Source of the DNA: Neophaeotheca triangularis
Lineage: Eukaryota
Length of the DNA: 64,000 nt
NCBI GenBank assembly: GCA_054600435.1
Contig: BAAIJX010000079.1
Span: 1-64,000 of the forward strand
Direction: 5' to 3'
Shown: piece after piece, positions 1,558 through 64,000 of the stretch
How positions within the stretch are numbered: the first letter of the stretch is position 1
Layout: every line of letters starts with the position of its first letter
Notes under the pieces: model-generated
Database searches by the model: none
What the model saw: only the letters and a program-made list of their open reading frames with translations
Told to the model about the DNA's origin: nothing
Position numbers and translations under genes: made by a program

Positions 1558-2908
1558 GTTGAGCTATTGTTCTAGCGATGCTGGGGCTGTCTTTTGTTTC
1601 CGCTGTTGCTGTTGGAGGAGGTCTGAGAGAAGCAAGTCCAGTCTTTCAAGAGAAAAGACAGGAAGAGGAATACAAAAGAGAGCAGTACTCGCCCTCAGAT
1701 ACCTACAGTACCTATCCAGCTATTCAGCCATCCACCTACCCAAGTTATCTTCCGATACGCGCGGGGCAAGGGAAGTTGATAAGAGCTCGCTGTCCACCTA
1801 ACTTAACCTAGGTTATCATCATCTTACCTAAGTTCCCGTTACCACCTTGACTAAGTTATTATTGACACGGATAGCTTGAAGAGCGAATTCGGCAGGTCGC
1901 TCTTGACGAGACGCGCCGGCCAAGTAGCCTACCTAATCATGGGCTTGAGCCGTGGATCCGCCATTGGTCGTACCTGCCTCTAGCACTTATCTCCAGTAGT
2001 AGCAGTACCTACCTGGGTACGTTGAAACTAGGCAGGTACGTGGACTCCTATCCCCGCCTGATGCTGTCACTGTCTCTGTCACTTCGGAGCTCGAGCTTGA
2101 GGGGGCCCGGGCGTCAATAATGTCGGCTGCGGGGCTGTTGATAACGATAACGATAACGATAGCCAGGCACGAAGTGGAGAGCTTCAACTCGCCGTGGTGG
2201 GGCTGCGAAGCGAAGTCGCTCTCGAAATGTTCAGATAGACCGCGATAGTGATAGTCCTAGTAATCGATGGATGATTGATAAGTCTTTGACTAAACGAAGA
2301 GTGAGGCATATCTGGATGCCATTGGCATTGTCGTCCAAAGTAGATGCCCGAGGAGGTTGTGGGAGCTTCATGTACTGTAGTCAGCGGACCTTAGCCTTTA
2401 TATATAGGTAGGTAGCTTTCGCCTATACTTGTTCAACCTTGATGGGGGAGGCCCATTAGTCTCGGAGGCGAGATCGAGGATGACGGACTAAGGTAGGTAG
2501 TTATAGTTGCGCATCATTCCGAACCTTCTTCCAATCATTCCTGATACACGAGCGATGTTCGAATTGCTAGGGTACGTTCTACACGAAGAGGGACTCCGAA
2601 CGTCGTGGTTAGAGCAGTGGTTCTAAGAAGGGTCCCAGCGTAGTGTGCGGCATTGACGAGTGCACGGCAGTCTTAGCCTCTGATGTCGAGGTCAACGAGC
2701 ACAACTCCAGTATTGTCGAGGCAAAAGACGATGTGGAATTCACGAGGAGGAGGGTATCGGTGTTGGCTCGCGGCGGCGATGATTAATGAGAACAGAACGT
2801 GGCAAGGGCAATCTGTTATCAGTAGGCGACAACACAGTAGACGGCAGAGAATTGAACCAGCCCCACGACGAATATTGCTCTGATCAACTCTTTAAGCTCC
2901 CACGATCC

Positions 2909-45918: not shown

Positions 45919-46018
45919 GCCGGGGTAGCTCAATCGGTAGAGCGTGTGGCTCTTAATGAATTCTAGCGAGAGTTCAGAGATCACCTCAAGGTCGTGGGTT
46001 CGAGCCCCACCTTCGGCT
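45919..46018 (+). tRNA. tRNA-Lys(CTT) with 27-nt intron (45956-45982)
   Basis: Acceptor GCCGGGG/CTTCGGC, D arm GCTC/GAGC, anticodon CTT at 45952-45954, T arm GTGGG-TTCGAGC-CCCAC, followed by T-runs (Pol III terminator). Confidence 0.93.
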
Positions 46019-46714
46019 TTCTCTTTTTGCTCTTTTCCTCTCCAGCTTGGTAGCATTGCCTTTTATTTTTTCTGTTTTGGTGAGTTATGGATTGGCTTTT
46101 TTGTTGTGAGGGTCTGGCTGTGTCTGGAGGAAGGTTGATGGCTTACGGTCGATAACCGATGGATGAGAGGTTGGATGCTGTGGCCCCGCGCTTGATGGAC
46201 GACTTTCCATTTGTTTTAATCAGCTCGAGGAGACTTGTCGTGTTGCTTTTTACTCCTGTCACAGATTATGGAGGTTACGTTATCATGCTGTACAAGTCAT
46301 GTGTTCTCGCTCTCGACTTGCCTTTGCTTTCCCTGTTTTATCTTACTTCTGTCGTGCTAGATCAAACAATGACCAATGTTTTCCTCTTAATAGTATGCAC
46401 TTCCAACTCCAACCCATCAACCAACCAAAAAAGCAGCCATACCCGCGATATCGACCCCGAATACCCTTTAAAGACTCAGAATCATCAACAGAGGCCTCTT
46501 AGAAACCATCAACATAGAATGAATGTCTCAGCACCCTCGGTACCGCCACCAGACCCGATAATCAGGGTAAGAGTTTGGGTTGCAGCTGCTGCCTCAATCC
46601 TATTGGCTTGCCTCCGACCACGCTAGCTCGTGGCTAGCTTGTTGGCGCACCGTCTTGAGCGTCGTCTTCGACGTCTCTAGTGCGCGCTAGAGAAACGTTG
46701 GTGGTTTGCCGTTA

Positions 46715-46752
46715 GGGCCTGTTCGCAGTTAGGGTTTGGGACCACGGTGGTC
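46715..46752 (+). repeat. Harbinger left TIR
   Basis: GGGCCTGTTCGCAGTTAGGGTTTGGGACCACGGTGGTC; two G/A differences from the right TIR. Confidence 0.95.
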
Positions 46753-47054
46753 ATGGTCTCGGACCATGGTCACGGTCGCGCTATGGTCGGTGTCATAGGT
46801 CATAGCTCTAAAGGACTGTTCGTGGTCGGTCCGGCTCTAGTGGCTCTAGCCCTAGTGGCTCTGTCGGTGTATACGGAGGTACATAGGTACATCCGTCTTG
46901 GGCGCCTCGACGCGTCCCGTCTACTCGTTATATGTAAGCCGTTATTTTAGGTAGTTATAGGCCCTTAAATCAACTCTTATTACTGCTCCTACTACTGTCT
47001 CGTTCTACCTATACCGCTATACTCGAGCTACATCCTACTATTATTAGTATGCTA

Positions 47055-48320
47055 ATGTCAAAAGAGTAGAAGAACGCGCGCCAGAGGGAGCTCAGGGCTG
47101 TAAAAAGGCGCGTAATTGACGAGCTTAGAGATGACGAAGAAGGTACTAAAGATACTAGTAGTTAGAGTAAGAGGGTTAAGAGGGGCCATTTCTAGTAGTC
47201 GTAGGAGTAGGTATAGACTATACTTGATAAGCTCTTACAGATTACTCGTACTAGCGGTAGAGGTGATTGCTGTTTATATAAGCAGAGCGAGTGGCAGAAG
47301 CTAGTAGAGGCCCTTCGTACGTAGTATAGTGTAGACATTAACTAGGAGTAGTACTATAGCAAATTGTCGGTATATAAGACCGTATAGAGACAATAGAAGG
47401 CTTATTTAAGACAGCTCTTAGGGTAGGGAAGGAGTACTAAAGGGGTACCGATCCGGTTAGAGGCTAAGGAGGATTACTACTTTAGTATATAGATAGAGTG
47501 TAGGAGGTTTAGGAGGAGACTCCCGCCCTTCTTTAAGGAGCTCTTAGAGCTATTAGGTAACAAGTTACTACAAGGTAATTATGTCTCGTCGATTAACGAC
47601 CTTAGAGATGAGCTTCTTCTACCTTCTATTAAAGAAGGTCGTGCTATTATACTAGTAGATAAGCCTAAGTTAGAGCTAGAGTAGGAGCCGGTAGATAAAC
47701 TAGACTAGGAGCTACCGGAGTAGGAGCTAGTAATAAATAACATAGAGCTAATAGAGTAGGAGTAGTTACCCTAGAAGCGTGCCCCTACGACAGTCCGTAC
47801 CCCGTTAGTTACGCCGCCTATAACTCCTACTTATTCGTTAACACCGAGTAGGGGTTAGGCCGTTTAGACGACTAAGAAGAAGGTTACTACTATAGAGGTT
47901 GTCGCTAATTCAGCCTCTTAGATAGTAGAAGGGTTTACATGCCTTAGCTAGTAGTTTGTAGAGCTCAAGGTGCCCCCTACTACTAAGGTAATAACGCGGT
48001 TAAAGGCCTTACCTTACTTCTAAGCCTTAAGTCTTACCTACCGAGTTATGGCCTTCCATATTATCGTAAACGAGACCGTAGCTACTACCTTCTTACCCCC
48101 TATTACTAAAGAGGAGATAGTCGAAATGCTCTATACCGAGTTTATAGAGCGTAGTGTATAGTTGCCGTAGGAGGAGTCTATTAGTAAGGCCGTAATAGGA
48201 GTAGTTAAAGGTAGTATAGAAGAAGAAGAAGGTCGAGTAATAGGGGAAGAAGGTGTGTTTAGTGTTAGCGAGGTTAAGGGCTTTACTACCTTAGGCATAC
48301 ATTAAAGAAGCAGTAAGATA
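47055..48320 (+). pseudogene. Harbinger ORF1, Myb/SANT-like DNA-binding protein (RIP stops; end approximate)
   Basis: De-RIPed reading W-SQEQVQTMLDKLL..GGRGD...KQSEWQKLVEAL...EQ..SK...KTVWRQW...SGWG, the Myb_DNA-bind_3 pattern. Confidence 0.8.
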
Positions 48321-48339
48321 TAGCTATGACTATCTACTA

Positions 48340-49206
48340 TACTAATAAAACATGAGCTAAGGCGATAGACGAGACTACATCCTTATACCTCTATAAAATT
48401 TAAGCTAGTTACATAACCTTAGACATCCCTTAGACTTCATCCCCTTTAGACATACCTTCGTACGGTATACTCCTAGTAATAACTAGCCCTAGTACAAGAG
48501 GCCTCTTTATATGTCGACAATACTAGCGCCACATCCTCTAAGCAATACGGTCACGCCGCGTAGTGACAATAGGGCTCTTATAAGCACTAGAGGGCCGTCT
48601 AGTATAGCTGTATTCGTCGGTATTAAGGGTTAGGGGCGGTACCTCCTTATGCGCCGGTTAGCTATACGAGTTTATGAAGTTATGAAGGCTATAGAGCGTA
48701 TACACTAGCATTACCTACACCTTAATCGAATACCCTTGCCTAGGGCTATGTTTTAAGATCTCAAAACGAGCCTTAAGTACACTAAATACCCTCTTAACGA
48801 TGTTCTAGAGCTGTACATGGCGTAGGTTAAATAGTTCCTCTAGAGTCTCTAGTTTTACTTACGACTTATACTACTCCTTAAGGTGATACCGCATCTTCAA
48901 GTAGGGTGTCAAGAGCGTCTTGTCTATAGCTATATACCCTACATCTACGAGCTAGTATGCCCTCTTAGGTATCTCAAACCCCTTCATCTTAGCTATATTT
49001 AGTACGGTACCGTCGTTCGTAGAGCCCTCCTACCCTAGTAAGACATATACAAAGTTCATGTCAAAATCTACTACTACTAGCATGTTCTACGATATGAACC
49101 CCTTCTAGTTATGCTATAGACCTTACATATTAGCTAGTATTGCGGCTAGGATGTACGAGCCATTAAGAGTACTAACATACCCTCGAAAGAACGGCTAGAG
49201 CTTCTT
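48340..49206 (-). pseudogene. Harbinger DDE transposase, C-terminal part (end approximate)
   Basis: De-RIPed LWPFFRGCVGALDGSHIP..NRKGFISQNVLAAVDFDMNFVYVLPGWEGSANDG..WLADAGY..LLTPY..RYHLKEW..EELFNLRHAQLRNIVERVFGVLKARFEIL. Confidence 0.92.
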
Positions 49207-49367
49207 TGACACAGTACGACAGTATGGGTCAGTATGTATGGTGTATAAAAGATAGGATAGACTCTCTATCTACAGCTAAAGCTAGAAGTACACACTATAC
49301 ATACTCTCTCCCCCTCTAGGTAGGAAGCTATAAGCCACACCCACACTAGATAACTCCTGCCATAACA
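49207..49367 (-). repeat. 3' LTR (161 bp)
   Basis: Matches 61405-61565 with 14 transitions and no indels. Confidence 0.97.
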
Positions 49368-49408
49368 GGTAGGGGGCTCCTCATGCTTACTATGTCCTCA
49401 TTAAGCCA

Positions 49409-49675
49409 AGACCGTCATGGTCCGTAGGAACCGAGTCGGTCAGTTTAAACCGAGTCGGTCGGTCTAAACTGAGGGGGCTTGCCGAAACCGAGTGGGTTTG
49501 CCGAAACCGAGTTGGTTACGTCAAACCGAGTGGTTTTGTTCGAACCGAGTCGGTTAGTAGGCATCTAGATAGAGTAAAACCGTGCGTGGGGTCCAAACCG
49601 TGTCCGCGGCTTCAAACCGCGCTAGTAGGTTCAAACCGCGCTAGCAAGTTCAAACCGCGCTAGTAGGTCAATCCG
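49409..49675 (+). repeat. 19-bp-phased AAACCG motif array (two blocks, about 14 units)
   Basis: Motif starts at 49409, 49428, 49447, 49466, 49485, 49504, 49523, 49542; then 49577, 49595, 49614, 49633, 49652, 49670. Confidence 0.92.
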
Positions 49676-49813
49676 TAGTAGTAGGTTCGCAGCTCGTGGT
49701 CTAAGGCCGACGGAGTTAGGGAAGAGTATTAGCGTGTCACGCTACTAGGATGAGAAATTAGTGGACCGCGATTCTATTCGATGTGTAACTAAGGAAATAT
49801 CTCGAACTACGGG

Positions 49814-50047
49814 TAGGCAAAAGCCTTCGCTGGATGGAAATCGCTTGTGGGTAGGCGAAAGCCTTCGCTAGATAGAAATTGCTTGCAAGTAGGCGAAAGC
49901 CTTCGCCTAGTGACGCTAAGTTTCGGACGCGGGCTCCGGAAACTGAAGGCAGGTGAACACCTTCGCCTTAATCGCTATATCGGCAGGCAAAAGCCTTCGC
50001 CTAGGGAGAAACGCTAAGCTTAGAGGCAGGTAAAAACCTTCGCCTAG
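49814..50047. repeat. Six copies of palindromic AGGY-N4-RCCT-TCGC motif
   Basis: Copies at 49814, 49852, 49890 (38-bp period), 49950, 49984, 50027. Confidence 0.88.
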
Positions 50048-50228
50048 TAGACTAGAGGGAGAAACAACGTAGGACAGAGGAGCGCGCATCGCGGTTATAC
50101 GGCTAGGCCGAAGTCTACAGCTACCTTGTTAATTTTTTAGGTCAGTGTTGTCTCACTATATCCCGCGCTGACGCGCCGTAGTTTATATAGTCTTCGGACC
50201 GTGGCACTCCTAAGGAGTAAGGAGCGCA

Positions 50229-53168
50229 TCATGCTCTAAAGTACGGCAGCTAGTAGCGTGCGCGCCTAGCTAACCTAGTCTCTATAGGAGGAGAGGCCTT
50301 CTAGCGGCGCACTAAAGGTGTCTAGGCCATAGCCTAAGGGCCTACGTCGTCTTCGGTAAGGTCTATGAATTCGACCTTCTTGGCGCTAGACAGAGGTACT
50401 TTCCCGGGAAAATGGAGGAGGACGGGAAGGGTTTCGGCTACGTCGCGGACAGTCTAGGAGATGCCGGAGGTATCGATTGTGACGGCGTCGAGCGCCTAGG
50501 CTTCTAGCCATTGTTTCTAGCTCTTTATCGTCTCCTACTCACCTTCCTACGGGCTAGGATCTTCGTAGATAGTGATGTCTCCCAAAATCATCCCTTTGTC
50601 CTATACGTCTTGTATTGCTTACATCCTCGCTCTTTGAACTTCCGCCGCCATGATAGCTATAGACTCGGAAGCTACCTTGACTAAGTCGTATTCCTTATGG
50701 GCCACCGCTATTAAGTTCATGGCCCTAGTGCGGACACCGTAGTCTACGCTGTTCATGTCCGACTTTATACTGTCGTAGTTAGTCTCCGCGTCCTAGAAGG
50801 TGCTAAGGGCGTTGATTCGCGCCTCGTAGAAGGCGAAAGCCTTCTAGTTGTACTCGCCTTAGAACTAGCTAGTACGGTACTAATCAATCTAACGCGCGGG
50901 GGAGGTCGGTTGTGAATGGCTCTATACGCCGGAGGCGCGGCGGAACGGGTTATTGCGGAGAGATAGGCTAGTAGGTGTGCGGTTAAACGGGTCGTTCATG
51001 GCGCTCGTATTAAGCGATAGGAAACGCTGTCCGCTACGCGAGCTATACGCTAGTTGTCTACCGCTAGAGGTAGGCTGCAACTACGCCTACTAGTTACCCG
51101 ATGTGCGAGGGTATTGGCCGGCTAGGGTAGCTTTTAGGTACTTATCTTTACGCCCCGAGAGGCCGCTAGACATTAGCGGAAGTTAGGCGCCTAGGACATA
51201 ACTACTATCGGCTAGGGTTCGCGCTTGGCCGGAGTATTAGGTTAGGTAATGGCCGCAGCGGTCCGGGGTAGCTGCTCCGTCGCTAGTGACGCGGTAGAGG
51301 TGGGGAGGAATCTAGAAACCGGCTTCTGACAACGTGGCCTAGTCGTTACCCGCTGCTGTCGTCGGCGAGGTGGAAGTGGACGGCAATCCCATGTAGCGGA
51401 GGGGTATAGGTGGCGGGAACGCCGCCATTCTTGCCATGGGTAGCTCTATGTCGGTATAGCGTTCCGCCGTGTCATCTAGTAGGATATTTCTCTATCCCTA
51501 GACTAGGGGCGGGGTGCGTAGAGTGGCGTTTCGTCCCTCTAACTAACTGTTGACAGTCACGTCGGTCATTAAGCGGTCGGGATGGCTACGGGGTAGCGAT
51601 ACTTGGTTGTCCATGAACTCGCGGTAGGCTAGAGAGATCCTATCCACATCGATAACCGTTAGCCAGCGTATTACTGTCTAGTCTACCTCGAGGTACTCCT
51701 CGTACTAGAACTTTTTGGCGCGGGCTTACCTCTACGTATAGTACGTGGACGGTTTAGTAGCGAGCGTGGGACGCTGCTATAGGAAGCTGCGCGGTAGGTT
51801 CGAGACTGTCGTCATCAGGTCTTTTTCTAGATCTCTAAGTGTCGTCAGGTAGTTGTATAGGTACCCGCTGCCGTAAAGCGTGTAGCATCCGTAGATGCAC
51901 GCATACTACTACTTCCTACTTATGTTTAACTAGAGGATGCCCGGGCGTCCCCTAGGGCGGCGGTTTAGTACTAGCTCGCCGCGAGCAGTAAAGGTCTCGG
52001 GCTAGTTACGGTACAAGATCTCGCTAGTCAGGAGAGAACGCTCCGATATAAGCATGAGCTCGAGCACGTCGCAATCTTCTAGCGCCGCATAGGTTAGTGG
52101 TAAGCTGTCGATGTCGAAACGGGAGTAGAAAGCGTAGTAGTAGTATAAGCCGGTGGTTTCGCCTAGGTTGAGCTCATGGCTAGGGTCACGTGTCATGCCG
52201 ATGCTCTCGGGGCGCTCCGGTAGCGTATACATTTAGTAGAAGTCGTAGGGAACCTTAGGGTTTCCGTACCACACAAAGTACGGGTTTGGTTACGCGCCTC
52301 CCATGTTAGCGAGGCAGTAAGTGATAAGGGGCTAGGGGCAAATCGTATAGAGTACCGCAAGACCGACCGCGCGGAGGACGAGTTCGAAGGCGCCGTCTTG
52401 CTTAAGGGTTTAGACGGACGAGTGTTCTCCCGCGGTCAGGAGTCGGACGGCCGCTACGACTATGTTGTTAAAAACACCGTTCGGTGTAAGGCTTTCGAGT
52501 GTTTCCTAGGGATGTAGTACTCCTAACGAGGTAGTTACGAGCTCATAGGCGTTGTCGATGAGCGCGACGTCTTGCGCCTTATTGCTATTACGTTAAGTAA
52601 CTAGTCGAAAGATAGAAGTAAACAGTGGATCGGCCTACTAGTAAACGGTAACGCAATTAGTAAGCGATTTGAAGGGTCGGAGCGAAGCTAGCTAGTAGGA
52701 GGCGTACTACTATAGACGGAAAGGGAGGTCGGTTTCGTGTAGCGCGAGTAGCTAAATTGTTCGAAGGTTGAGAGCGAGGTCTAAGAATGAAGGCGCTGCC
52801 GCCTTAAGGTCACAGAAAGTGTTATAGTATTCGGGAGTGTTAGGAAGGGTTATATCTACGCTTAGTCTTTCAAAAGCGACCTAGAGCTAACTGTCGCCCT
52901 CTCGGTAGCGGCGCGCGGCTTCTTCTACTGTCTCGTTAGGATTAAGCGCGCCCTATTAGATAAGTTCCTAGCGAGTGTTGTAACCGGGAAGATTTGTGAA
53001 AGGTGACGCCTGAGTTAGGGCCTAACGACGGATACGTAAGGCTTTCTTAGCCGGAGTCTAGGTTATGTCTACTACCGTGCCGGTAGGGACGCTGGGTTTG
53101 AATACCCGCGGCGTGAAAGTAGCGCGGCGGGGGTATAGAGGTAAGGTATACCTGTTTAGCGCCGGTAT
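50229..53168 (-). pseudogene. Extra retrotransposon ORF3, about 980 codons, unknown function (RIP-inactivated)
   Basis: One frame without frameshift; about 56 internal stops by hand count, all TAG/TAA (RIP-type); first in-frame TGA at 50229-50231; start inferred from ATA (RIPed ATG) at 53168. Confidence 0.75.
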
Positions 53169-53442
53169 CGATGTTACAAACCGAAACGCTTTAGAAGGTA
53201 GTTGTGAAGAAGGTAGGGCTAGAGACGGTTAGGATGTTAGTTAAGTCGGTTGTTATAAGTTGAAAGGTAGGAGTTATGGTTAGGAAAAGGTGTCGAGGTA
53301 AGTGTTGTTGTTAGTATTGTTATGAAGCTAGCTAGCGCGTAAGCGAGCGGAAACGCGGCGCCAAGCCGCGGTTACGACGTCACCCCTAACGATGGCGTCG
53401 GTATCGATAAGGTGATAGTGATAAGGAGGTGTACACGACACC

Positions 53443-56400
53443 TTAGGCCTGTCTATAGAAGGCTAGTGTGGCAGACCTCGTCTACCTCCTGACTTCCCTA
53501 CTAGTACAGATAGGGCGAGTCGGTATCACTAGGATTAGTACGCGGTTTGCCGTGGATGCTTGCTACTATTCTTCTCTAGTTTCAGTGTCGGTGGGGGCGG
53601 CGCTCTTAGCCGCCGCTACTAGGGCAGGATTAGTTATTAGGGTATTAGGCTTCCTACCCTTAACCCTAAGGTCTCCCTCCGTACCGGGGTACAGCTCGTC
53701 ATATTGGGCGACCATTTCTCGTGCGTCTAGTAGGTCGTCGATGTCGTACCATACGTTATGAGCTGGCCCCTAGCCGAGCCACTAGACAAGGTACTGTCTA
53801 ATGTCTTTCCCCTATTGCTTTCTCGTTCTACGTGCTAGTAGCCTCTTAATCTCGTATACTCCGACTCCGTCTTCATCTAGGTATACGGGCCTAGGCTCGC
53901 CGGGTTCCTAGCTGTAAGGGTCTAAGCTAGTTAGCGCCGGTTCGAGCTATATAACGGACACGACGGGGTGTATTTTCCAGTGCGGTAGGAGTTCTAGCTC
54001 GTAAGCCAGCTTCCCGACGACCTTAGAGATCTTGAAAGGGCCATATCGCTAGGCCGCTAGTTTCTTTAGGATAAAACCAGGTATTAAGTAACCACGCTAG
54101 AGGCGGAGTAGGATGTTTTGACCCTTTTTGAACCGGATTAGACGGTAGGCTTAGTCGTATCTGTCCTTTATGGCTACTACTACCATCGAGAGAGCGTCTA
54201 TTGCTTAATCGCGGGCTACCTGTCGTAGGGCGACGTAGTCTGCGACCGGAAGCTTAATTAGAGGGTCTAAGGCATCAAGGTTAGATTTGAAACCCTAGAT
54301 GAGGATGTTCGGCACTTATGCCGTCGATACGTTCACGGCGTTGTTTATCGACGATTGTATGTGCGTTAGGGCTACTACCTAGGGGGTATCCGGGTTGCCG
54401 TAGACGAAGAACCGGAGTGCGATCTCGATAGTCTAATTAGTGCGCTCCGACTGCCCGTCGGTCTACGGGTAGTAAGTAGTGGAGGCAAGGAAGCGAGTGT
54501 TTAACTTGGCAAACACTCCCTTCTAGAAAGCGGAAAGCCACAAGGGGTCCCGGTCACCGATAAGCATATAGGGGATATTCCACTCCGCGCTACGGAGAGC
54601 TTCTAGCCATACCGCCGCCCATTCCGGTACGTTCTAGTCGTTCCGCCCCTTGACCAGCAAGATTTTTTTGGAAAAACGGTCTGTGACCGTGAGCATTACG
54701 TCAAAGCCATCTGGCGTTAGAGGAAGCCCCGTTACCTAGTCGGCTGTCTAGGTATAGTAGGGGATCAGCTTGACTTGAGTAGGTTGTAGTTCGCCGAGCG
54801 GCTTAGATCGGAGAGTTTAGCACACCATGTAGTCGGGGCAATACGCGATGTAGCGCTAGAGCTTGTCTACTAGTCGGCGGATGTAAAAACTAGCCTATAT
54901 GCGGGAGTAAGTCCGGAAGAAGCCTACGTGATAGTAGTTATCATGTGCCATGCGGAAAATTTCTTGGAACAAGGGCTTAGGGATGTAAAGTCGTTCGCGG
55001 CTATCTTCCTCGTCGCGGAAATAGATCAACCGGTCTCGTAGAAAGAAGCGCAGTCTAAGGGGACTAGACTCTAGTTCGCCGGCAACATCCTCTAAGCTGC
55101 CCGCCTAGCCGTCGCTTTACGTAGTGGCGTTGTCTAAGGTAGTACGGGCTTCGCACTACTCTAGCTACTAGAGTCGCGGCTGCTAGAAAGTGTCGTTTAC
55201 GTAGCCGGTTCGAATCTCCTCTTTGAAACCGTCGTCTATTACGACTAGGGTGGTATGGAACACTACCGTTATCTATTCCTCGGCGAAATTGTTGTAGTAG
55301 GCGGCCATACTGCTATCGAAATAGTTCTCGTCGGCAGCCTAATTGGCCTCCTCGTAGCCAAGAGGGTCGAGGGTATCGGTATCTGGTTCCTTTGTTGTAG
55401 TGGCTCTATCGCCTAGTAGACGGCTAAGGGCGTCTAGGACTAGGTGGATTCGTCCCGGGCGGTACCTAACGTCGAGGTCGAACTAGCTAAGGTACTACGC
55501 TACCCGGACTAGGCGGAGGTTCAACTTATTAGTTGAAGTAGTCGTGGTAAGGCTAGAGTGGCTTGCTAATGCCGCGACGGCGGAGTGATCCGTGAAGACC
55601 ACCGTTGATTTTGTGAACGCCTAGATCATATGGCGGGCTTTTCGTAATAGCTATACCATGCCGGCCATTTCGAGCTCCGTGGGCTAGTAATTCTTTTCGG
55701 CCGTCGTAAGAGCTTTACTGAGGAATGCTACTAGTTAGATGTCGTGACGGGGGAAATGCAATGCTTTTCCCCTGTTCATTACAGGTTCTAGGTCCCCTGC
55801 CACTATATAGACCACTACTCTAAAGCCGAATTCCTTTGATGCATCGACATCGGTATATAGCTGACAGGTAGGGTCGATGTAATATAGGAACGGTGTGTCG
55901 CGGAAAATGCCCTGTAGTACCGCGAAGGCGCGGTAGGCTGCTTCCCAAATTGAATCGTCTAGGGAAACCGGCGTCTTCTCTAAAAACCGTTTACGCGCTC
56001 CGCCTTTAAGCGGGCTGTCCTTAAGGAGGGCCGTCTTTAGCATTTGCAATAGCTACACGATCTAGGCGTAGTAGGGCACGCATTGCCGTAGCTAGCTAGT
56101 GAGTCTAAGGTACTTTTCTAGGTCTTTGAGCGTTCGGGGAAACTAGAGGTCGACAATAGCCTTAACCTTGTCGTCATGGGTAGCTAGGCCGAGCCCGCTA
56201 ACCTACTAGCCTAGGAGGGTTATGGAGGGGAAACCTAGGAAGGTCTTCGCTAGGCTTAGACTGACTTTAACGGTGTTAAGGCGGCTAAACACCTATGCTA
56301 GGTAGTCTAGGTGTTCTTCTAGGGAGTGTAAGAACACCACGATATCGTCGATGTACGTATGGTAGAAAGGTCTTAGGTCGCGGAGAAGGTTGTCTAACTC

Positions 56401-57888
56401 TCTCTATACATAGGCGATCGAGTTCTTAAAACCCATTACCGCTACCTTAAAGACCTCTTGACCGCGATAGGAGTTCACCGCCAACTTGTGACGGTCTTAG
56501 GCCGCTACTAACCATTAGTAGAAAAAACTGACTGCGTCTATAGTGGATATGAATTAGCAGCCGCGCGTTACCTATAGTAGGTCCTCTTGTAGGGGAAGGG
56601 GGTAGCTGTCCTTCTAGGTAACTTTGTTTAGCCCGCGGATGTCGACTACTACTCGGCCTTTTCGAACCGGCAGCCCGTCCTTAATAACTGTTTTCTAGAC
56701 AACGAAAACTAGGGAGGCAAAACGGGTGTGCTCGGTGCTCCACTCCATCTTGCCTTATACATAGAGCGGATCGAGCGTGTTGTCGACGACTTTTCGATCT
56801 ACTACGCTGAGTGGGAAACCCTTTAAAGAAAGCTTGGCGGATTCCTAACCGTCACGAAGGGGTATCGGCATATGGCGCTACTCGGGAATGTCCACGTAGC
56901 GACCTTTGTCGATGAAAAGCTCCGGGAAGGACTACACTAATTTCTCTAGTGCGGTTACTTGGTCTTACGCTCCGTACACGGTAACGCCGTTTAACAGGAC
57001 GGTCTACTCTACCCGGGGCACTTCCTTATAGAAGGCTGTCTTTAATGGGAGGGCGGCGAGACAGTGACTGTCTAGTTCGACATGGTAACTGCCTTCTTCT
57101 ACCCATTCCGAGACACGACTGAGTGTTAATCCCTCGTGGACGGACACGGCTAGTGAGGTGTCATTGCGAACCATTACGAAGCTGCACTAGGCATCTATAG
57201 CATAGTTGTAGCTAGTGAGGCCGGCTGGCAAATTAGGCGACGGTGTAAACTAGGAGTCTCTGTTTCGTGGTAGGAGTGGGAATGTGGCTTCGACCCTTAG
57301 TAACGAGTTTGGTAGGACCTGGCATTGTTTCGCTACTATAACTGATCTAGCGGTACGCATTCTGTCCCGCTGTTTAACTAGGAGCGGGGCCTACGCTCCA
57401 GTATAGGTACCTAAGGTGACTAACTTCCTCGGGATGTCGATCTTCATGCGCTATAGAGATATGATATCCATGGCTAAAAGCATGAGCGGTTTGAGGTCCC
57501 GCATAACGTGCACCTCATGTCTCATTTCGTAGAGGACTCTCTATCCACTAGAAGCCGCGGGAATCTAGAAAGTAAGCAAAACATGTTCGCGGACCTCCCT
57601 TAACGAAGGGCCCACTCCTCGCACTCGAAACGGTAATTTAGACTTGATACGAGATATGGTAGGGAGCTGCGATAAGAGGAAATGTTCGTCGATGATAGAT
57701 ACTACCGCGCTAGTATCGAGGCAGACGGGGGTGTCTATATTTTGCTGCTAGAAACAGACAGGTATTCTAAGGTAATGGAAATTTCGAAATGCGTATCCCT
57801 CGTATACGGCACCTAGGGCCTACGACTTGACCATGGGTAGGCTCTTAGTCGGATCAGTAATTGTCTGCCCTAGGGCTTTGCCGGCTAG
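53443..57888 (-). pseudogene. pol: Gypsy pol: protease, RT, RNase H, integrase, chromodomain (end approximate)
   Basis: CLDT(G)AVVSIIDEHF near 57710; FISTIDAVSFFY(Q)W near 56530; YIDDIVV near 56350; DVDASKEFGF near 55840; HDN..H.GFFR and DGQSERT in IN; YGPFKI..KLAYEL..HPVVSV; chromodomain YEI.RLLARR..YLV.WLG.GPAHNVWY near 53700-53860. Confidence 0.95.
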
Positions 57889-60800
57889 TCAGGCAGGATC
57901 GCTATACTCGGCTCGCAGGTAGCGATACAGTGCGTTTTTAGTGCCGAACTTAGTTTTGTAGTGCTAGCATCGTTGCTTTACTGGCCTCGGGGACGCTACG
58001 ATAAGCGGTCGTAGCGCCTACTCGGTTATTAGTGTAATGGATACGACGCTACGGAGTGTAGGGCTGTGCTAGGGGAGCACCTTATTGACATATGTATCGA
58101 AAACGTCGTCCTCGGGAGCATAAAGATCATCGCTATTAGTGCCGTAGGCGATTAGGTCTACGAAGTTGTTCTTAAACTCGGCGAGGACATCCTCGCCTTC
58201 TAACTACATTTCTTCACCCTCGTCATCTATAAAGTTGTTAGAAGGGCGCGAGTCTTGGCGATTCTAGCTTTAGCGGTTTTGATTGCGCCAGGTTGCCGCT
58301 AGTTATTACTAGGCTAGTGTGTTGCGCCCCGCCTAGCCATCTCGTGGTGGCGCCGTATCTAAGCGGCGTTTAGCCGAAACGGACGCGTTTCTAAATGGTA
58401 GCGCTTAGGGCGTCTAAGTTAGCCTTTCGCTTAGGCGGGCGCTACTAGGAAGAAACGGCTGGCGTTGTGCTAGAGCCTATTAGGGGGGATTAGTCTGTAG
58501 GCGGAAACCGTTATTGTTGTTTCGTCTAGAACGGCAGTTGTTGAAGCCGCGGTCCTAGATGCTGTCAAATCGCTTACTAGACTCGGCTAGCTGAACTATC
58601 GGACGATTTAGGTAAAGGTCAGTCTAGGTGTCGAAACAGTCCTCTATTTAACGGATGAGGCTCTCTTAGGTTGTTCTTCTATTAGGCTTAGGGATGTTTT
58701 GGCGAAGGGGGGCCTCAATTTTGAGCTAACATTAGGAGAGGCGAGCTGTAAGGCTATCAATTTTGGCCTCCTACGCCTATCGAGTACAACTAAGAACGAA
58801 TTCGGAGGGGGCGCGGCCACTACGCACGTCGTTACGTGTATAGGCCTCCCGGTTAAGGTTACTCATGGCAGTTATGACTAAGACTCGGAATTTATTGCGT
58901 AGGGCTTTTTCCCATCTCTTGATGCTAGAACTACCCCGGAGGTGCCGTCGCTCCGACTTAGTTAGCTACGACATGAGCTAAATAGAAGCTCCTCCGCGAA
59001 GGCACTTCCCTAGGTGTTTATGCGTTTCGGACGACGAATTCACTTCGGCGTAGTCTCTAGTAGATTCCAAGAAGAAATGCACTGATCGATAGTACTACTT
59101 GTTCTAGGCTATAACCTAGTCTCTAGCTAGTGCCTTAGCCGTGCTAAGGTAGGGGTCAAAGTACCTAACCTCCTCCGCTTTAAAGGGGGCATGTTTAGAT
59201 CGAGAGCGAGAGCCGCTACGTTAGGGGCTGTCGACTCGGTCGCCGGAGTCTTCGCGATAGCGGCAGTACCCGCTCCCACGGGAGCGGCGATTACGGCAGT
59301 TACGCCTACGGCTTCGGGATAGGCTGTTAGACGAGGATGATCCCGAGCTTAGGCTAGAGCTACTACTCGGGTCTTAACGCCGGTGGTAGCGAGTGCTATA
59401 GCGGCGTGGCTCGCGGTGGTGACTACGTCCACGAGGCTCGGCTAGAGGTTAAGCGTCGGCTAGGTGTTCGTTTGGCTCCTACGCCTAGAGGTTACCTCTA
59501 CGAAGCCGCTCGGAGCGCGAGTAGTAGCTATCTAGGCGGCTGACAATACGAGAGCCGAAATTCGACTCGACTAAGGGCATGGCGTAGGCATGTTCGTTAT
59601 AGAGATAGCGGTCGATTACGCTAGGAGCACTTACGGGGCCCGAGGGCTAGTTAGCTAGTAGGATGTCGTTTTGCGTAGGACTAGTAGCTACACTCTATCG
59701 GTTCTCTTCGTTACGGGACTCTTTACGGGCGGCAATTAAGTCGCGAATCTCGTTGAAACGAGCTTCGACGTACGCCTCGTTACGTTCTTAGACTTGCTGT
59801 ATCGATTCCTATAAGAGACCTCGGATCGCGTCGAGAGTTAGCACTTAGGCCTATTACTAGGGCGGTCGCTAGGCCGGCTGTTATAGGGGCGGTTACGCCG
59901 GCTACTGTAGCGGCTACTGCGGCGGCTACTACTACGGCTACTCGGGGTAAGGGGGGGCTACTAAGCGGTTTCGCTATACGCGCCTAGGCTAGTCGGGTTC
60001 CCCGTGTACGTCGGCCATAGTAGCTAGCTGCGTTAGGGGTAATAGGGGGTAGGAGGTAAGTTGTTCGAAACGGTGTGGGATATAGCGGAAACTCATGACA
60101 GACGCTTAAGTCGAGGGGGAAGACAGGCGTAGGCTAACTTCGACAGCTGAGTCTGTATTACTAAGACGGGCTAGTTGTATTAGATCGAAGAGAGGCGGCT
60201 CGTTAGGCTAGGCGGGGTTGTCACTTATTGTAGTGCTAAGCGGGGACGAAGAGGGTAGGGGGACTTAGGGTGGAGTCGTAGGGGTAGTGGGTAAGGGGAT
60301 CTACGGGGGGGATAGTTAGGTCTAGGGGGTAGGTAGAGGGATCTAAGGAGGAGACAGGGCGGGCAAGGTAGCTCGGGTAATAGGAGGGAGCTAGCGGTTC
60401 TACGACGGGCGTATCGTGCGGGGAGCGAATGTGGCCGCTAGTATGTCGGCTAGCGTAGATCTCTCGTGCCCAAATTGGAGGCGTAGGTAGTGCCGGATCC
60501 GTTCGTACTAAGCTAGGAAAGTCTTTACTGTAGCGGTAATGAGGGTCTTGTCGACGGACCACTACTCTAGGAAACCGAATTCCCCTTAGGGGGCTCCTCT
60601 AGGGTATACGGCGGTGACCTTCTTAGTAGCTTAGTGTAGCGTCTTGTAGCGGTTCTTCAATGCTTTCGACCGTGTAGGATTAGTGTAGAAGCAAAAGAGT
60701 TAATGAGCTTCCTTAATGTTGTCGGCACTTAACTAGGGTAAGGGTAAGGAAGCCACGGTTACGAAAGGGAAAGACGGCTTAGAGCTTGTTTACTATGTGA

Positions 60801-61100
60801 GGCGTAGCTGCCGAATCGGACAATGGTTATATCTAGGCGGTTTATCGCGATTTGAGTAAAGGGCGGCAGAAAAGGGTGTTATGAGCGTAGCTCGGAGGGG
60901 CGAGAGGTTAGGGTCGCTAGCCTCGTGTAGTACCGGGCTATAAGGCGCCTAGGCGCGTATAGAGATGCTTGCGATCTTCTTAGACGCTTGTCTACTCTCT
61001 ACTGTTTCGATGTCACCCTCGATAGCTCTTTTTCCACTCGGCTCTATACCGAGCTCTCGACTCTACTACTAAGGCCTAGTTCTAATTGCTTTAGTCAGCG
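57889..61100 (-). pseudogene. gag: Gypsy gag (long, Pro/Arg-rich, C-terminal C2H2-type zinc finger); start approximate
   Basis: Same frame as pol; FKAEEV(G)YFDP near 59160; RC.H(C)KT.FGTKNAL(H)R(H)LRAE(H) near 57904-57970; ends at TGA 57889-57891. Confidence 0.75.
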
Positions 61101-61150
61101 TCGGTCCGGGCTAGCATAGGTCACTTAGGACGGGTAAGGTCGCCGGGAGC

Positions 61151-61350
61151 TAGTCGGTTCGTGCTGACGTAATCGGTTTAAGCTAACGGAGACGGTTTAG
61201 AGTAAGCGAGTCGGTTTAGACCAATGAAGTCGGTTTGACCGAAGCGAGTCGGTTTGAGCTAATGGAGTCGGTTTAAGCAGGTCTAGTCGGTTTAAACTAG
61301 CGGAGTCGGTTTGGGCGGGTCGAGTCGGTTTGAAACGGCGGAGTCGGTTT
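61151..61350 (-). repeat. 19-bp-phased (GAGT)CGGTTT array, 11 units with variable spacers
   Basis: CGGTT starts at 61155, 61174, 61193, 61212, 61231, 61250, 61269, 61288, 61307, 61326, 61345. Confidence 0.95.
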
Positions 61351-61393
61351 GAAGAAACTGTCTAGGGATGATCTTGATAGATCTTGACCTTCT

Positions 61394-61402
61394 CAGCTAC
61401 TA
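61394..61402 (-). other. Putative primer binding site (tRNA-iMet-like)
   Basis: TAGTAGCTG 2 nt downstream of the 5' LTR; one RIP-type reversal gives TGGTAGCTG, complementary to a ...CAGCUACCA tRNA 3' end (recalled for Neurospora initiator tRNA, not verified here). Confidence 0.6.
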
Positions 61403-61404
61403 CT

Positions 61405-61565
61405 TGACACAGTATGACAGTATGGGTTAGTATATGTGGTATGTGAAAGATAGGATAGACTCTCTATCTACAGCTAAAGCTAGAAGTATACACTATACAC
61501 ACTCTCTCCCCCTCTAGGTAGGAAGCCACAAGCTACACCCACACCAGATAACTCCTACCATAACA
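61405..61565 (-). repeat. 5' LTR (161 bp)
   Basis: TG...CA, matches 49207-49367. Confidence 0.97.
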
Positions 61566-62044
61566 TTCTTATTACTATAGATTTAGTGTAGAGTAGTAGT
61601 AGTTATAGGTAGTTAAGTCTTTACCTTATACCGTCGTATAAGAGTAAGCAATATTACTTTAATATAACTATAGAGACTAGTAGGTAAGTGCTAGAATGTC
61701 CGCCGTAGACCCCTAAGACTTACTCCCCTAGTATATATATCTAAAAAGATCACTACCTTCTCTACCGCTTTAACTTAGTAACCGTCCTTAAGGCTATACT
61801 CGCTTACTAGCTTATCTACTAACTATATTAAGCTCTCTCTTATCATCCGGGTAACCTCCTTATACCTCTAGTCATTATTTAGTACTAACTAGGTCTCCTT
61901 TACCCCCTTACTAGGCTCTAAAACTAGAGTTTATTAAGGCCCTTATAGTATGTAGTACCGCATAAGGAAGGTTGTAAGCTCCTCTATGACCTTAATGTTA
62001 GCTTCTATCTAAGCGATGACGAGCTCGTCGAGCAGTCTGTTCAT
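61566..62044 (-). pseudogene. Harbinger DDE transposase, N-terminal part
   Basis: ATG at 62044 (MNRLLDELVIA); LKDG..VKAVEKVVIFL...SLRGLRRTF(Q)H(S); removing the Gypsy plus one TSD restores the frame ..SNKKL(W)PFFRG. Confidence 0.85.
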
Positions 62045-62437
62045 AAGAGTAACGCGTATAGCAAAAGCAGTATAGGTTTATAAGAGTAACGCGTATAGTA
62101 AAGGCAGTATGGCAAAAGCAGTATGGCAAAAGCAGTATAGCTTGTAGTAGACGGAGCTATATACACTTTCTATAAAAACACGAACAAGACACGACAGGGT
62201 ATGTACGAGCTATAGGCCATAGGACCATAGGGCTATAGGACTACGAAATACACCTCTAGGGGTGTATTTTGTGGCTCCAAAAAAGACTACGGTCCTATAG
62301 CTCTTAGTGGCTCTAGAGCCATGGCGGAGCTACCATACTACTACGAACAGTCGGAGCTACCAGAACTAGGACCGCTAAGGTACCCCCAAGGTACCTCCAA
62401 TTCACTAATTAGTAGCGAGCCGTGGTCATGGTCCTAG

Positions 62438-62475
62438 GACTACCGTGGTCCTAAACCCTAACTGCGAACAGGCCC
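62438..62475 (-). repeat. Harbinger right TIR
   Basis: Reverse complement GGGCCTGTTCGCAGTTAGGGTTTAGGACCACGGTAGTC. Confidence 0.95.
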
Positions 62476-63393
62476 TTAGTACTAAGTTCCTAAGGAGGTG
62501 GACCTTGTACTTCTAGGTGGCGTCTTTTATCTAATTGGCTGAAGGTTGCTTGTAGGGTTAGAGTTGTAGTCTTGAGCCACTCTAACACTAACCCTATGGT
62601 GGACTAGTGACACCTTCTTTTTGACGACGGTAAGGTATTGATACTGACAGTATTGACTAGAGGTATTAGAATCGCTAAGACAGGTTAGGAAACACAGCTG
62701 AGTATTGGTGTGGAGTGATCAAACAACTCTTACCGCTAATTTACCTTATAAAGACATCGCGACTTGGGAAAACCAACTTGAGGCTCTCTCCCAAGCCCAG
62801 CTCATCCGTCGAGAGGCAGCGTCGGCGTATCAAATGACGACTCACAAGACAGACGTCCAAGAACACGATACTTGTATACCTAATGAAGGACGCCAACGCA
62901 TACGAGGGAAGACAACACGATTGTAAAGCACCCGCCGCCCCGTCCAGCCTTGCAGCACAAGATGATTCGCCACCCAACCTACCCAGGCAGTAAGGTAGCC
63001 GCCCGGATGCCTTTGCAGAAGCACTGCAGCAATCCTCAATCTATGCAATAATGTTAGCAGCCACCGACCTTCGCTTGACGGACGCGCCGCCTGGCCTGCG
63101 GATGACCGGTGTAGCTCGAGCCCCTCACGCGGTCAGGACTCACAGGCTCGGCCTCCTCTTCTGCAACCGGTGAACCAAGCTCCCCGAGCTCCATCAGTCG
63201 CGTAGCCGCTGCCACGCTGCTCCACGCGTGCCTGGGCATGTGAAGAAGCTGGTTATATGTCGACAGCCCCCGCTGTCCAGTGTCGTCTACTTGTCTTGTC
63301 GATGAGCTATCGTTTCTTTCACTTTCGCCCTACCGGTTCGCAGTGTTTACCACTGCTTACTCCTGTTTCTCGCTCCCTCTCGCAGCTGCAAGT

Positions 63394-64000
63394 ATGGCAG
63401 CCGAACATGGTATAGAGGACGACGCCCAAGTCGCATCAGCAAGCATAGCAGCCCAGCGTGGCATGGAGGACGACACCCAAGACTTAGATCTCGCACACAG
63501 TCTATCGTTCCAATCTTCCTCTTCAGTCTTCGCTGACATGGGCCAGATGTCTGGAGAAGCAACAGGGTCAGAAGACTGGAGGCGCTACACTTTCTTCGAG
63601 AACTTTGGTTGATCCAGGTTGACGACGATGGAGACGTCAAGGATAGAGAAATGCAATCATCTGAATGTGACAGCAAACACGCGGTGAGTACCGACAAGGG
63701 GAAGCGGAAACAGACAGAAGATGTCGGCAGTGGATTCTGCAAGCAAGAAGCAATACACACCCGCGACAATGGATGTCATCGGAGCAATGCTACGGAATCG
63801 GAGGCGGACACATCCGCACATGATGAGCCAGACTACCCTCACAACAAGTACCCAGTGGGCTACGACTGTGAAACAATTGACGCTATTCGGATGTCTCTTG
63901 GTGAGGACTTTGAGTCAGACCCTTCACCACCCCTGGAGTTTGAAAAAGGCTGCCGGAACCCAAATTGCACCTACGAGCACTCATCGTTGAGCTGCAAGAG
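63394..64000 (+). CDS. Hypothetical acidic protein, 5' part, runs off the window
   Basis: ATG 63394 (MAAEHGIEDD), possible short intron near 63500-63546 (weak GTCTAT donor, GCTGAC branch, CAG acceptor), then an open frame LEALHFLRELWLIQVDDDGD...DKGKRKQ... to the window end; no recognisable family. Confidence 0.4.

Follow-up and report, generated by a model that had tools for sequence, protein, structure and literature searches.

Positions 49207-61565 of the window (the whole stretch of 64,000 nucleotides analysed here) raise two questions: what kind of mobile element lies there, and why short, strictly phased motifs are arrayed inside both of its ends. The sequence-only reading had proposed an oversized chromovirus in which an element-encoded protein acts on cognate arrays, possibly with a non-standard priming scheme.

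Identity, coding capacity and RIP damage

The whole span is one complete Ty3/Gypsy chromovirus of large size, lying on the minus strand and inactivated by RIP; identity and layout are both close to certain. At 12,359 bp (12.36 kb), and with a chromodomain pol recognised by Pfam, it is as oversized as had been claimed. The two LTRs of 161 bp each end in TG..CA and are identical at 147/161 positions; because the element is on the minus strand, the right-hand LTR is the 5' LTR. The boundaries and coding features are as follows.

49202..49206, no strand: target-site duplication TTCTT, left copy, identical to 61566-61570
49207..49367, minus strand: 3' LTR, 161 bp, TG..CA
50229..53525, minus strand: ORF3, about 1,098 codons plus TGA stop, RIP-damaged (TGA-free frame, RNY phase)
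53563..57888, minus strand: pol (Pfam on stop-as-X reading; end coordinate approximate)
53695-53856, minus strand: chromodomain (Pfam on stop-as-X reading)
53938-54066, minus strand: SH3 (Pfam on stop-as-X reading)
54832-54984, minus strand: integrase zinc finger (Pfam Integrase_H2C2, residues 2140-2190)
55480-55737, minus strand: RNase H (Pfam RT_RNaseH, residues 1889-1974)
56209-56661, minus strand: RT (Pfam RVT_1, residues 1581-1731)
57885..57891, minus strand: TGA CTA G, gag/pol junction, sole TGA in the gag-pol frame between 60018 and 53563
57892..60018, minus strand: gag, 709 codons from the first ATG of the frame (pol frame; putative start)
57904..57969, minus strand: C2H2-like finger at the Gag C-terminus, now translated as C-x2-Y-x12-Y-x4-Y
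60019..61141, minus strand: long 5' leader, about 1.1 kb, between gag and the 5' array
61405..61565, minus strand: 5' LTR, 161 bp (pairwise comparison with the other LTR)
61566..61570, no strand: target-site duplication TTCTT, right copy (direct reading)

RT, RNase H and integrase follow one another in one minus-strand frame, all above the Pfam cut-offs, and Pfam Chromo scores 28.1 and 31.2 bits at the integrase C-terminus (cut-off 25.1); a second Pfam scan recovered the integrase, SH3 and chromodomain part again. RT, RNase H, integrase zinc finger, SH3 and chromodomain in a single frame therefore place the element among the Ty3/Gypsy chromoviruses. Compared with an intact Gypsy pol, its pol is 26% identical in two segments, RT and integrase through chromodomain (E 5e-28 and 6e-35). 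Pfam rve is absent from the matches, although the integrase core still aligns to the intact pol, and no aspartic protease is matched by Pfam upstream of RT at E<=1. An LDTSA stretch was spotted by eye at about 57717, in the region upstream of RT.

The element is dead. All 14/161 differences between the LTRs are transitions, the RIP indices are 2.15 (TpA/ApT) and 0.55 ((CpA+TpG)/(ApC+GpT)), and the 3,249 coding codons of gag, pol and ORF3 contain 179 TAA/TAG stops as against no TGA (51 and 0 in gag; 65 and 0 in the 1,442 codons of pol). TGA is confined to the ends of gag and ORF3, with 52 in the off-frames over the same stretches. No frame remains open, and the ORF listing gave just three stop-free stretches of at least 100 aa. 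The family is low-copy in this genome: besides the one full copy there are a truncated one and stray LTR junctions, and depth over 54053-61024, gag/pol junction included, is that of a single copy.

The gag TGA-CTA-G pol junction described from the sequence is present at 57891-57885, and its TGA is the only one among 2,151 gag-pol codons. UGA-CUAG is a readthrough context shown by experiment (PMC4132726, in part), and Gag-Pol would be made by readthrough of this UGA, although RIP may itself have created the CTAG, from CCAG or CTGG. The Gag C2H2 finger likewise survives scrutiny as a C2H2-like pattern in the translation, assuming RIP changes: with TGY>TAY and CAY>TAY, it would originally have read C-x2-C-x12-H-x4-H. 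Pfam matches nothing in the finger region and nothing in gag. The leader has no Pfam match, no Rfam match and no clear RNY phase; the gag frame remains TGA-free through it too, so that a longer gag is possible.

The 3-kb extra ORF stands as an ORF3-sized TGA-free frame (53525-50229) and falls as an open one, since it holds 63 TAA/TAG stops. The frame is free of TGA between those at 53528 and 50231, the two other frames hold 21, and RNY codon phase favours it. To judge from its homologues, ORF3 is a real, conserved accessory gene of an uncharacterised protein family: nine relatives match at E<=1e-3 (best 2.4e-35), and tblastn aligns it to the locus L001, introduced below, with 32% identity over 404 aa (E 1.6e-47). 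It would encode a member of a small fungal family, placed after pol, where retroviruses carry env. None of 10 proteins (ORF3 and its relatives) has a Pfam family, ORF3 has no PDB sequence match, and the one core model of the family (pLDDT 66) gives a best Foldseek E of about 1 and 0/48,161 chains at Z>=2. The relatives end in tails that by eye are basic and NLS-like.

The primer-binding site, and phased arrays at the two ends

The noncoding features inside the LTRs are these.

49368..49376, minus strand: CCCCCTACC box (sense strand), abutting U3 at the expected polypurine-tract place (direct reading)
49419..49560, minus strand: 3' array B, 7 units, period 19, sense core ACTCGGTTT (repeat analysis)
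49572..49688, minus strand: 3' array A, 5 units, period 19 (one of 18), sense core GCGCGGTTTGAA (repeat analysis)
49805..50048, minus strand: ~38-bp repeats, 5-6 copies, each with a 7-bp-stem hairpin, AGGCGAA..TTCGCCT (repeat analysis)
about 61142..61352, minus strand: 5' array, 11 units, period exactly 19, sense core AAACCGACTC (repeat analysis)
61388..61402, minus strand: primer-binding site TAGTAGCTGAGAAGG, 2 nt after the 5' LTR

PBS-like sites had been reported at both ends. By comparison with L001, an un-RIPed metagenome relative, the right-hand one is the true PBS, its TGG apparently turned into TAG by RIP: L001 reads ..TGTCA AC TGGTAGCTGAGAAG at its LTR end, and the two share 14 nt of PBS following the LTR end, L001 being 1 of 120 loci that match the pattern. 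The PBS begins with TGGTAGC, complementary to a tRNA 3' end of GCUACCA, which is presumably typical of eukaryotic initiator tRNA-Met. The only tRNA gene found within the window is Lys-CUU. The left "TAG" box was considered as a second PBS and rejected. It is the complement of the conserved CCCCCTACC box, and because CCCCCTACC reads identically in un-RIPed L001 it is not derived from TGG. Non-standard priming is likewise not supported, the PBS being ordinary in place and form.

An ordinary polypurine tract next to U3 appears to be absent. The sense strand at the 3' end reads ..GAGGAG CCCCCTACC and then TG; no purine run adjoins U3, and the 9 nt beside it are 8 pyrimidines and one A, which cannot be RIP-made because RIP produces transitions only. 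L001 has this 9-mer too, at 2893-2901, some 200 nt short of its own LTR end. Short or imperfect polypurine tracts exist in other elements.

Inward-pointing, 19-bp-phased AAACCG arrays are indeed present inside both LTRs, 11 units at one end and 7 + 5 at the other. They are inverted relative to each other, the core CGGTTT of the 3' arrays (49419-49688) being the reverse complement of AAACCG, and they begin 54 and 61 nt inward of the LTR edges. When each array is read in its own direction, agreement of the cores is limited to AAACCG(A), followed by ACTC, AGT or CGC, and 3/7 units of array B are palindromic (ACCGACTCGGT). Core positions carry 1.6-2.0 bits of information and spacers 0.2-1.1 bits; by hand count, 3/99 core cells depart from the consensus as against 49/110 spacer cells. 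Since the spacer changes include transversions, RIP alone does not explain this pattern. The 38-bp hairpin repeats have an RNA fold z of -2.9, and at 49846-49889 another genomic copy shows a 42-base skip with 6 different letters instead, about one 38-bp unit.

Whether ORF3 and the arrays travel together is judged on n = 1 relative, L001, the sole one with DNA context. It has ORF3 and the PBS and no 19-bp array: the leader contains one motif copy, a AAACCGACTC 57 nt after the LTR end (54 nt in the element), and the 3' UTR contains none, has no TCGGTTT and carries an unrelated 28-bp repeat. Its LTR no longer aligns to that of the element. Arrays and ORF3 are thus separable, because L001 combines ORF3 and PBS with a single motif copy; the proposed co-occurrence is seen for ORF3 with PBS and fails for the array with ORF3, so that in this relative the features occur in part independently.

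Possible roles of the paired arrays

In 5' to 3' order the element comprises the 5' LTR, a tRNA-type PBS, 11 phased AAACCGACTC boxes, a 1.1-kb leader, gag, a putatively leaky UGA-CUAG, pol (PR?-RT-RH-IN-chromodomain), ORF3, the hairpin repeats, 12 phased CGGTTT boxes, the CCCCCTACC box and the 3' LTR. We favour, over a partnership of ORF3 with the arrays, a tentative reading based on folding models and analogy, to which we give a probability of about 0.35: the arrays may cyclise the genomic RNA by 5'-3' pairing, similarly to Ty1 CYC5/CYC3. The 5' boxes (just after the PBS) are strongly complementary in genomic RNA to the 3' boxes (just before U3), and with a shared 19-nt period they could zip both RNA ends together. 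The arrays would then be a multi-copy form of the single CYC5/CYC3 contact or of the Ty3 5'-3' bridge, and the end-to-end contact would help reverse transcription to start. In Ty1, CYC5 is found immediately downstream of the PBS, where it base-pairs with CYC3 from the 3' end, and both Ty1 and Ty3 need end-to-end contact for efficient initiation (PMC4974528, in part).

The 5' and 3' arrays gain -34.5 kcal/mol on cofolding, compared to -9.4 +/- 3.7 in 60 dinucleotide shuffles (best -17.3), with 102 intermolecular pairs against a shuffle mean of 37.6 (max 70). The leader and 3' UTR of L001 also cofold better than 40/40 shuffles (-21.0 vs -7.6 +/- 3.5); their best local duplex, at -135.5, does no better than shuffles (-122.2 +/- 7.6), and they share two 8-nt complementary words, about chance level. 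Pairing per array unit spans 7 nt only (AAACCGA/UCGGUUU) before a C-C mismatch. Because any inverted repeat is complementary, complementarity cannot separate RNA pairing from inverted protein sites, and the array B palindromes suit a dimeric protein or RNA dimerisation equally.

Somewhat unlikely in our estimate is that the arrays are phased protein-binding sites on DNA, cDNA or RNA, with ORF3, the Gag finger, integrase/chromodomain or a host factor as candidate binders. Conserved cores between variable spacers resemble binding-site arrays, as do 11 and 12 strictly phased copies pointing inwards at both ends, and the palindromic units recall dimeric binders. Yet the cores diverge beyond AAACCG(A), and at 7-10 bp they exceed the reach of one C2H2 finger, which reads about 3 bp. 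ORF3 is real and conserved in the same element, and its relatives have NLS-like tails, but with no Pfam family, PDB match or solved-fold match nothing points to nucleic-acid binding, and L001 keeps ORF3 with its lone motif. A less probable explanation is that the arrays are functionless minisatellites, the 3' copy arising by inverted duplication or template switch. The UTRs of LTR retrotransposons often grow tandem repeats, which are common inside these elements and seed satellites in plants (PMC7004042, PMC3648361, both in part); the 28-bp repeat of L001, the 38-bp repeat that appears to differ between genomic copies and the low copy number of the family fit this account. Neutral decay, however, should strike all 19 positions alike, whereas core and spacer cells differ as counted above; the motif keeps its leader position in L001 despite an unalignable LTR, and the exact 19-nt period is retained in three separate arrays.

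It is quite improbable that the boxes (ACUCGGUUU or AAACCGACUC) imitate, or base-pair with, one arm of the tRNA primer, as a Ty3-like bipartite PBS in many copies. There are precedents, in that the Ty3 PBS is split between the genome ends, with the tRNA proposed to cyclise the RNA, and the T and D arms of the tRNA pair in Ty1 with boxes close to the PBS (PMC4974528, in part). The match of TGGTAGC to a tRNA ending GCUACCA also agrees with it, but the PBS complement puts ..CCUU in the 3' strand of the T-stem and not the CCGAG that the boxes need.

Comparison with known systems

The element resembles fungal chromoviruses, of which Tf1/MAGGY-type elements are examples, in its TG..CA LTRs, 5-bp target-site duplication, PBS 2 nt after the LTR, and gag followed by RT-RNase H-integrase-chromodomain in one frame. 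It differs in size, about twice the usual, and in having ORF3 (1,098 codons) downstream of pol, a leader of 1.4 kb, phased arrays in inverted orientation, a Gag finger of C2H2-like instead of CCHC type and no purine run at U3; its pol shares no more than 26% identity with the single intact fungal-type Gypsy pol compared. VANDAL/VANC, the anti-silencing system of a DNA transposon, similarly combines an accessory gene with tandem short motifs in one mobile element, but the element here is a retrotransposon, ORF3 matched no known family, and L001 has ORF3 without arrays. The closest precedent for protein sites is the 5' UTR of Drosophila gypsy, where a host multi-finger protein binds an array of Su(Hw) sites (an insulator). 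There too, roughly a dozen short, conserved cores separated by variable spacers come right after a Ty3/Gypsy PBS; gypsy has no inverted 3' partner, and kingdom and motif are different. Tat/Ogre and Retand are plant Ty3/Gypsy lineages with extra ORFs and tandem repeats in their UTRs. Like the element here they are oversized and carry a further ORF alongside gag-pol as well as repeats in tandem within untranslated regions (PMC7004042, in part), whereas this element has a fungal host, paired inverted arrays and an ORF3 without homology to anything named.

The junction shares with UGA-CUAG programmed readthrough a UGA followed by CUAG, at the place that sets the ratio of Gag to Gag-Pol; that readthrough was shown in vertebrate genes and alphaviruses, not fungi, as far as the source text covers (PMC4132726), and the CTAG here may be RIP-made. 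Ty1 CYC5/CYC3 and the Ty3 bipartite PBS likewise place short complements of about 7 nt near the PBS and the 3' end (PMC4974528, in part); they have no sequence relation to the arrays described here, and have one pair where this element has 11 and 12 phased copies.

Identity and reading frames of the element

The coordinates 49207–61565 delimit exactly one LTR retrotransposon, and the anatomy proposed in the sequence-only reading is largely real, including its LTRs, its arrays, its TGA-CTA junction and ORF3, an extra gene downstream of pol. The two LTRs (49207–49367 and 61405–61565) are each 161 bp long, start with TG and end with CA, have TTCTT immediately outside them, and differ from each other at 14 positions, every one a transition. 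RIP-type dinucleotide bias extends across the whole element, with TpA/ApT at 2.15 and (CpA+TpG)/(ApC+GpT) at 0.55, as compared with 0.77 and 1.14 respectively in the genic part of the window. Open frames are absent, and just three stop-free stretches of at least 100 aa overlap the region. Both ends of the element were searched against Rfam with no match at E≤1. Elsewhere in the window Rfam places a full-length U4 spliceosomal snRNA gene at 16350–16541 (+; 71.9 bits) and a tRNA gene at 45919–46018 (+; 51.5 bits). This gene has 29 extra nucleotides behind its anticodon loop and by eye encodes an intron-containing Lys-CUU tRNA; ARAGORN reports no tRNA in the window.

When the six frames are read with stops as X, Pfam matches are confined to one of them, on the minus strand, in the order listed below.

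Pfam domains of the element, in order of occurrence
First, minus strand, RVT_1, 48.5 bits
Second, minus strand, RT_RNaseH, 44.4 bits
Third, minus strand, Integrase_H2C2, 32.4 bits (integrase part confirmed by a second Pfam run)
Fourth, minus strand, SH3_Tf2-1, 33.4 bits
Fifth, minus strand, Chromo, 28.1 bits

The pol frame can be aligned in two segments, at 26% identity, with an intact Gypsy pol found on a metagenome contig: one segment covers the reverse transcriptase (E 5e-28) and the other runs from the integrase through the chromodomain (E 6e-35). The domain order within a single minus-strand frame, together with this alignment, identifies the element as a Ty3/Gypsy chromovirus, with the right-hand LTR as its 5' LTR.

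RIP prefers CpA-to-TpA changes and creates TAA and TAG codons, but TGA hardly ever. Stop density per frame is uninformative after RIP, and the reading frames were recovered from TGA counts, an approach reusable for other heavily RIP-mutated DNA. No TGA occurs in any of the three coding frames, which hold 51 (gag, 709 codons), 65 (pol, 1,442 codons) and 63 (ORF3, 3' of pol; 1,098 codons, 53525–50232) TAA or TAG codons, whereas the two off-frames together have 31 TGAs across gag-pol and 21 across ORF3. Gag and pol lie in one frame; codon phase (RNY), which is unaffected by RIP and has no power to tell the strand, favors the pol frame across gag-pol and the +1 frame across 53150–50150. In-frame TGAs are found only at 57891, where the Gag finger precedes and the protease region follows, and at 50231, the latter likely being the ORF3 stop. 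We infer that gag starts with the ATG at 60018, although it may start further upstream. Upstream of this presumed ATG, the 1.1-kb leader (60019–61141, minus strand), bounded at its other end by the 5' array, is TGA-free in the gag frame and contains three TGAs in each of the other two frames.

The gag-pol junction, previously noted as TGA-CTA-G, is indeed present and reads TGA CTA GCC in a single copy, its TGA being the only one within the gag-pol frame. Reporter assays with four mammalian genes showed that readthrough is efficient at UGA followed by CUAG, a context also present in alphaviruses (PMC4132726). By analogy, the junction fits a leaky stop setting the ratio of Gag to Gag-Pol, although the CTAG could itself be a RIP product of CCAG or CTGG. 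About 25 codons 5' of the junction is a C-x2-Y-x12-Y-x4-Y stretch in which F and L occupy the positions expected from the C2H2 consensus. Pfam has no match at this stretch, but allowing for TGY>TAY and CAY>TAY changes by RIP it probably derives from an ancestral C2H2 finger in Gag, in agreement with the earlier proposal.

ORF3 and its relatives

A HMMER search of 1.84 billion representatives with ORF3, its stops read as X, recovers nine proteins at E≤1e-3 (three at ≤1e-10 and one at ≤1e-30). These relatives share a common core of ~200 aa with the motifs LPP, LEDADV, W..TF, RRQ.GRPG, Y.L.G.G and WQRP, and some also have long N-terminal parts collinear with ORF3 as well as low-complexity tails. 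None of ten ORF3-family proteins contains a Pfam family, and the ORF3 profile has no match among PDB sequences and no relative among viral contigs. An AlphaFold model of the family core (pLDDT 66, pTM 0.68) matches no solved fold, and a model of the whole of P0008, a family member, has a fold match through one long helix only (Z 6.5). Word-indexed protein searches with ORF3 return nothing near its length; those with P0009, a hypothetical protein of Polychaeton citri, and with profile A6 return just the queries themselves and P0017, and a Protein Atlas search with P0009 gives no usable match. Given relatives with a common core and no Pfam, PDB or fold match, ORF3 is therefore a real gene of an uncharacterized protein family, dead in the present copy; the accessory gene claimed in the sequence-only reading is genuine, with its TGA-free frame and nine relatives.

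A metagenome scan for ORF3 relatives yields two loci. The first, L001, is 3,404 bp long and carries the best relative of ORF3, 32% identical to the window's copy over 404 aa in tblastn (E 1.6e-47). Homology occupies 502–2607, beginning at 502 in one frame, with an in-frame stop between open frames ending at 735 and starting at 844, pointing to either a defective copy or an intron between these positions. The segments downstream of the ORF are as follows.

Layout of L001 3' of its ORF3 homolog
3' UTR, downstream of the ORF: unrelated 28-bp repeat
3' of the 28-bp-repeat UTR: CCCCCTACC box
After the CCCCCTACC box: LTR, ~200 nt ending ..CTCTGTCA
After the LTR end: two bases, then TGGTAGCTGAGAAG
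57 nt beyond the LTR end: one AAACCGACTC

The window reads ..CTGTGTCA AG TAGTAGCTGAGAAGG at the corresponding place. The order of ORF3, box, LTR end and PBS-type site in L001 therefore shows that a second lineage, free of RIP, also has ORF3 within an LTR element. We read the LTR and PBS behind ORF3 as the result of a tandem arrangement, or of assembly across identical LTRs. The second locus, L002, was rejected as a family member: its ORF3-family sequence (within 1–4499; 100% identical to P0008 residues 46–96) breaks off at base 155, and is followed on the opposite strand by an intact, unrelated Gypsy pol, which looks like a nested insertion into ORF3-like sequence. ORF3 is thus found inside LTR elements at least twice, at the position of env in retroviruses. 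As a conserved fungal protein family without assigned domain or fold, its role would extend the short list of fungal retrotransposon accessory genes.

Priming sites and genomic copies

The element had been described as having mirror-symmetric priming sites, and this does not hold. The right-hand site reads as the true PBS, its TGG evidently changed to TAG by RIP, because L001 has TGGTAGCTGAGAAG two bases after its LTR end. The left-hand TAG site is the complement of the CCCCCTACC box and not a second PBS, because this complement also reads TAG in L001, where the box is conserved without RIP. A purine tract adjoining U3 is absent from both the element and L001. Judged by the PBS, a candidate primer tRNA would be one ending ..CCUUCUCAGCUACCA. 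Matches to 14 nt of the PBS in viral contigs (at least 118) were dismissed as chance, none having an LTR-end context.

Contigs from three sequencing runs of the same organism were compared with 46500–63900 (17.4 kb) at a likeness of at least 80%. Run X1 contains the stretch and is probably its source, whereas X2 and X3 contain almost none of it. Fifty-two contigs of X1 fit, and transitions make up 660 of the 810 differences listed. Depth in X1 is ~136 across 54053–61024 and mostly ~190–350 across 46500–53471, with ~160 in the first bin and ~430 at the LTR bin. Positions 50673–53496 are covered by a contig of 3,277 nt with ~15% differences, and another contig ends behind 53921 in TTAGGG-type repeats; the 3' part of the element thus has a second copy, diverged from the first and ending at 53921, which appears to be truncated and telomere-capped. 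Both LTR edges, 49207 and 61565, also occur joined to other flanks. The genome therefore contains a single full copy, a 3' fragment that includes ORF3 and arrays and is capped by a telomere, and further LTR junctions, and the element is a dead, low-copy specimen. Its flanks (46000–49206 and 61566–~63000) are a RIP-affected repeat with TpA/ApT of 2.05 and 1.63, within which 62039–62138 contains a 37-bp unit in 1.9 tandem copies and a 14-bp unit, AAAAGCAGTATGGC, in 2.8. An X1 contig joining 49141 to 61591 suggests that the element is inserted in another repeat that also exists without it. Neither X2 nor X3 has a contig at this likeness anywhere in 46500–63900, and this covers the flanking repeat as well. 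Either the block is specific to the strain, or contigs may have been lost to filtering.

The paired 19-bp arrays

Inward of each LTR lie arrays of 19-bp-phased boxes, with cores given on the element's sense strand.

Arrays of the element
Starting 54 nt after the right-hand LTR, minus strand: 5' array, 11 units of exactly 19 nt, core AAACCGACTC
Ending 61 nt before the left-hand LTR, minus strand: 3' arrays, five units with core GCGCGGTTTGAA and seven units with core ACTCGGTTT

Cores hold 1.6–2.0 bits of information per position and spacers, which include transversions, 0.2–1.1 bits; by hand count, 3 of 99 core cells are off consensus versus 49 of 110 spacer cells. This contrast favors constraint on the core while the ancestor was active over neutral decay or RIP. 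When each array is read in its own orientation, agreement is limited to AAACCG(A). Folded together as RNA, the 5' and 3' arrays gain -34.5 kcal/mol with 102 intermolecular pairs, values reached by none of 60 shuffles (-9.4 ± 3.7 kcal/mol, mean 37.6 pairs).

The reading that we favor, at a probability of roughly 0.35, is that the arrays are a multi-copy cyclization device, in which the 5' and 3' arrays would pair in genomic RNA and cyclize the ends of the element. Evidence from L001 is mixed, since its leader and 3' UTR cofold better than any of 40 shuffles, yet its best local duplex does not stand out and it has no complement of the array motif. The main rival, that the arrays are protein-binding sites, accounts just as well for the cores being conserved and for the palindromic units, and is compatible with the complementarity; we regard it as somewhat unlikely, though close behind cyclization. 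The proposed partnership of ORF3 with cognate arrays is weakened by L001, one relative having ORF3 and no 19-bp array. That the arrays are functionless minisatellites is consistent with what is usual in LTR elements, and with the unrelated L001 repeat, but not with the contrast between core and spacer, and is unlikely. A bridge between the ends through a tRNA arm is highly improbable, as the T stem implied by the PBS does not fit.

Taken jointly, and quite doubtfully, a chromovirus lineage may have turned a single Ty-type contact into two phased multi-copy arrays and replaced the canonical polypurine tract by the conserved CCCCCTACC box, with a third gene, founding a protein family of no known fold, that would act on the arrays, perhaps clamping the ends of the RNA or cDNA or protecting the element from silencing. 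The main points of interest are the paired arrays and an orphan protein family carried by retroelements; no fungal chromovirus with ORF3 and paired arrays was found described in the literature covered, which lies outside Repbase and subscription journals.

To our knowledge, two yeast elements are the only ones whose end-to-end RNA contacts have been worked out in detail. In Ty1, a short stretch directly 3' of the PBS base-pairs with a sequence at the 3' end, and in Ty3 the two genome ends are bridged by the primer tRNA, as summarized in PMC4974528. Cyclization is favored here because the arrays lie at places corresponding to the Ty contacts, are complementary, and share one common period. If true, a cyclization contact in the form of conspicuous phased complementary arrays would be an easy system for testing how such contacts, like those of Ty1 and Ty3, help reverse transcription.
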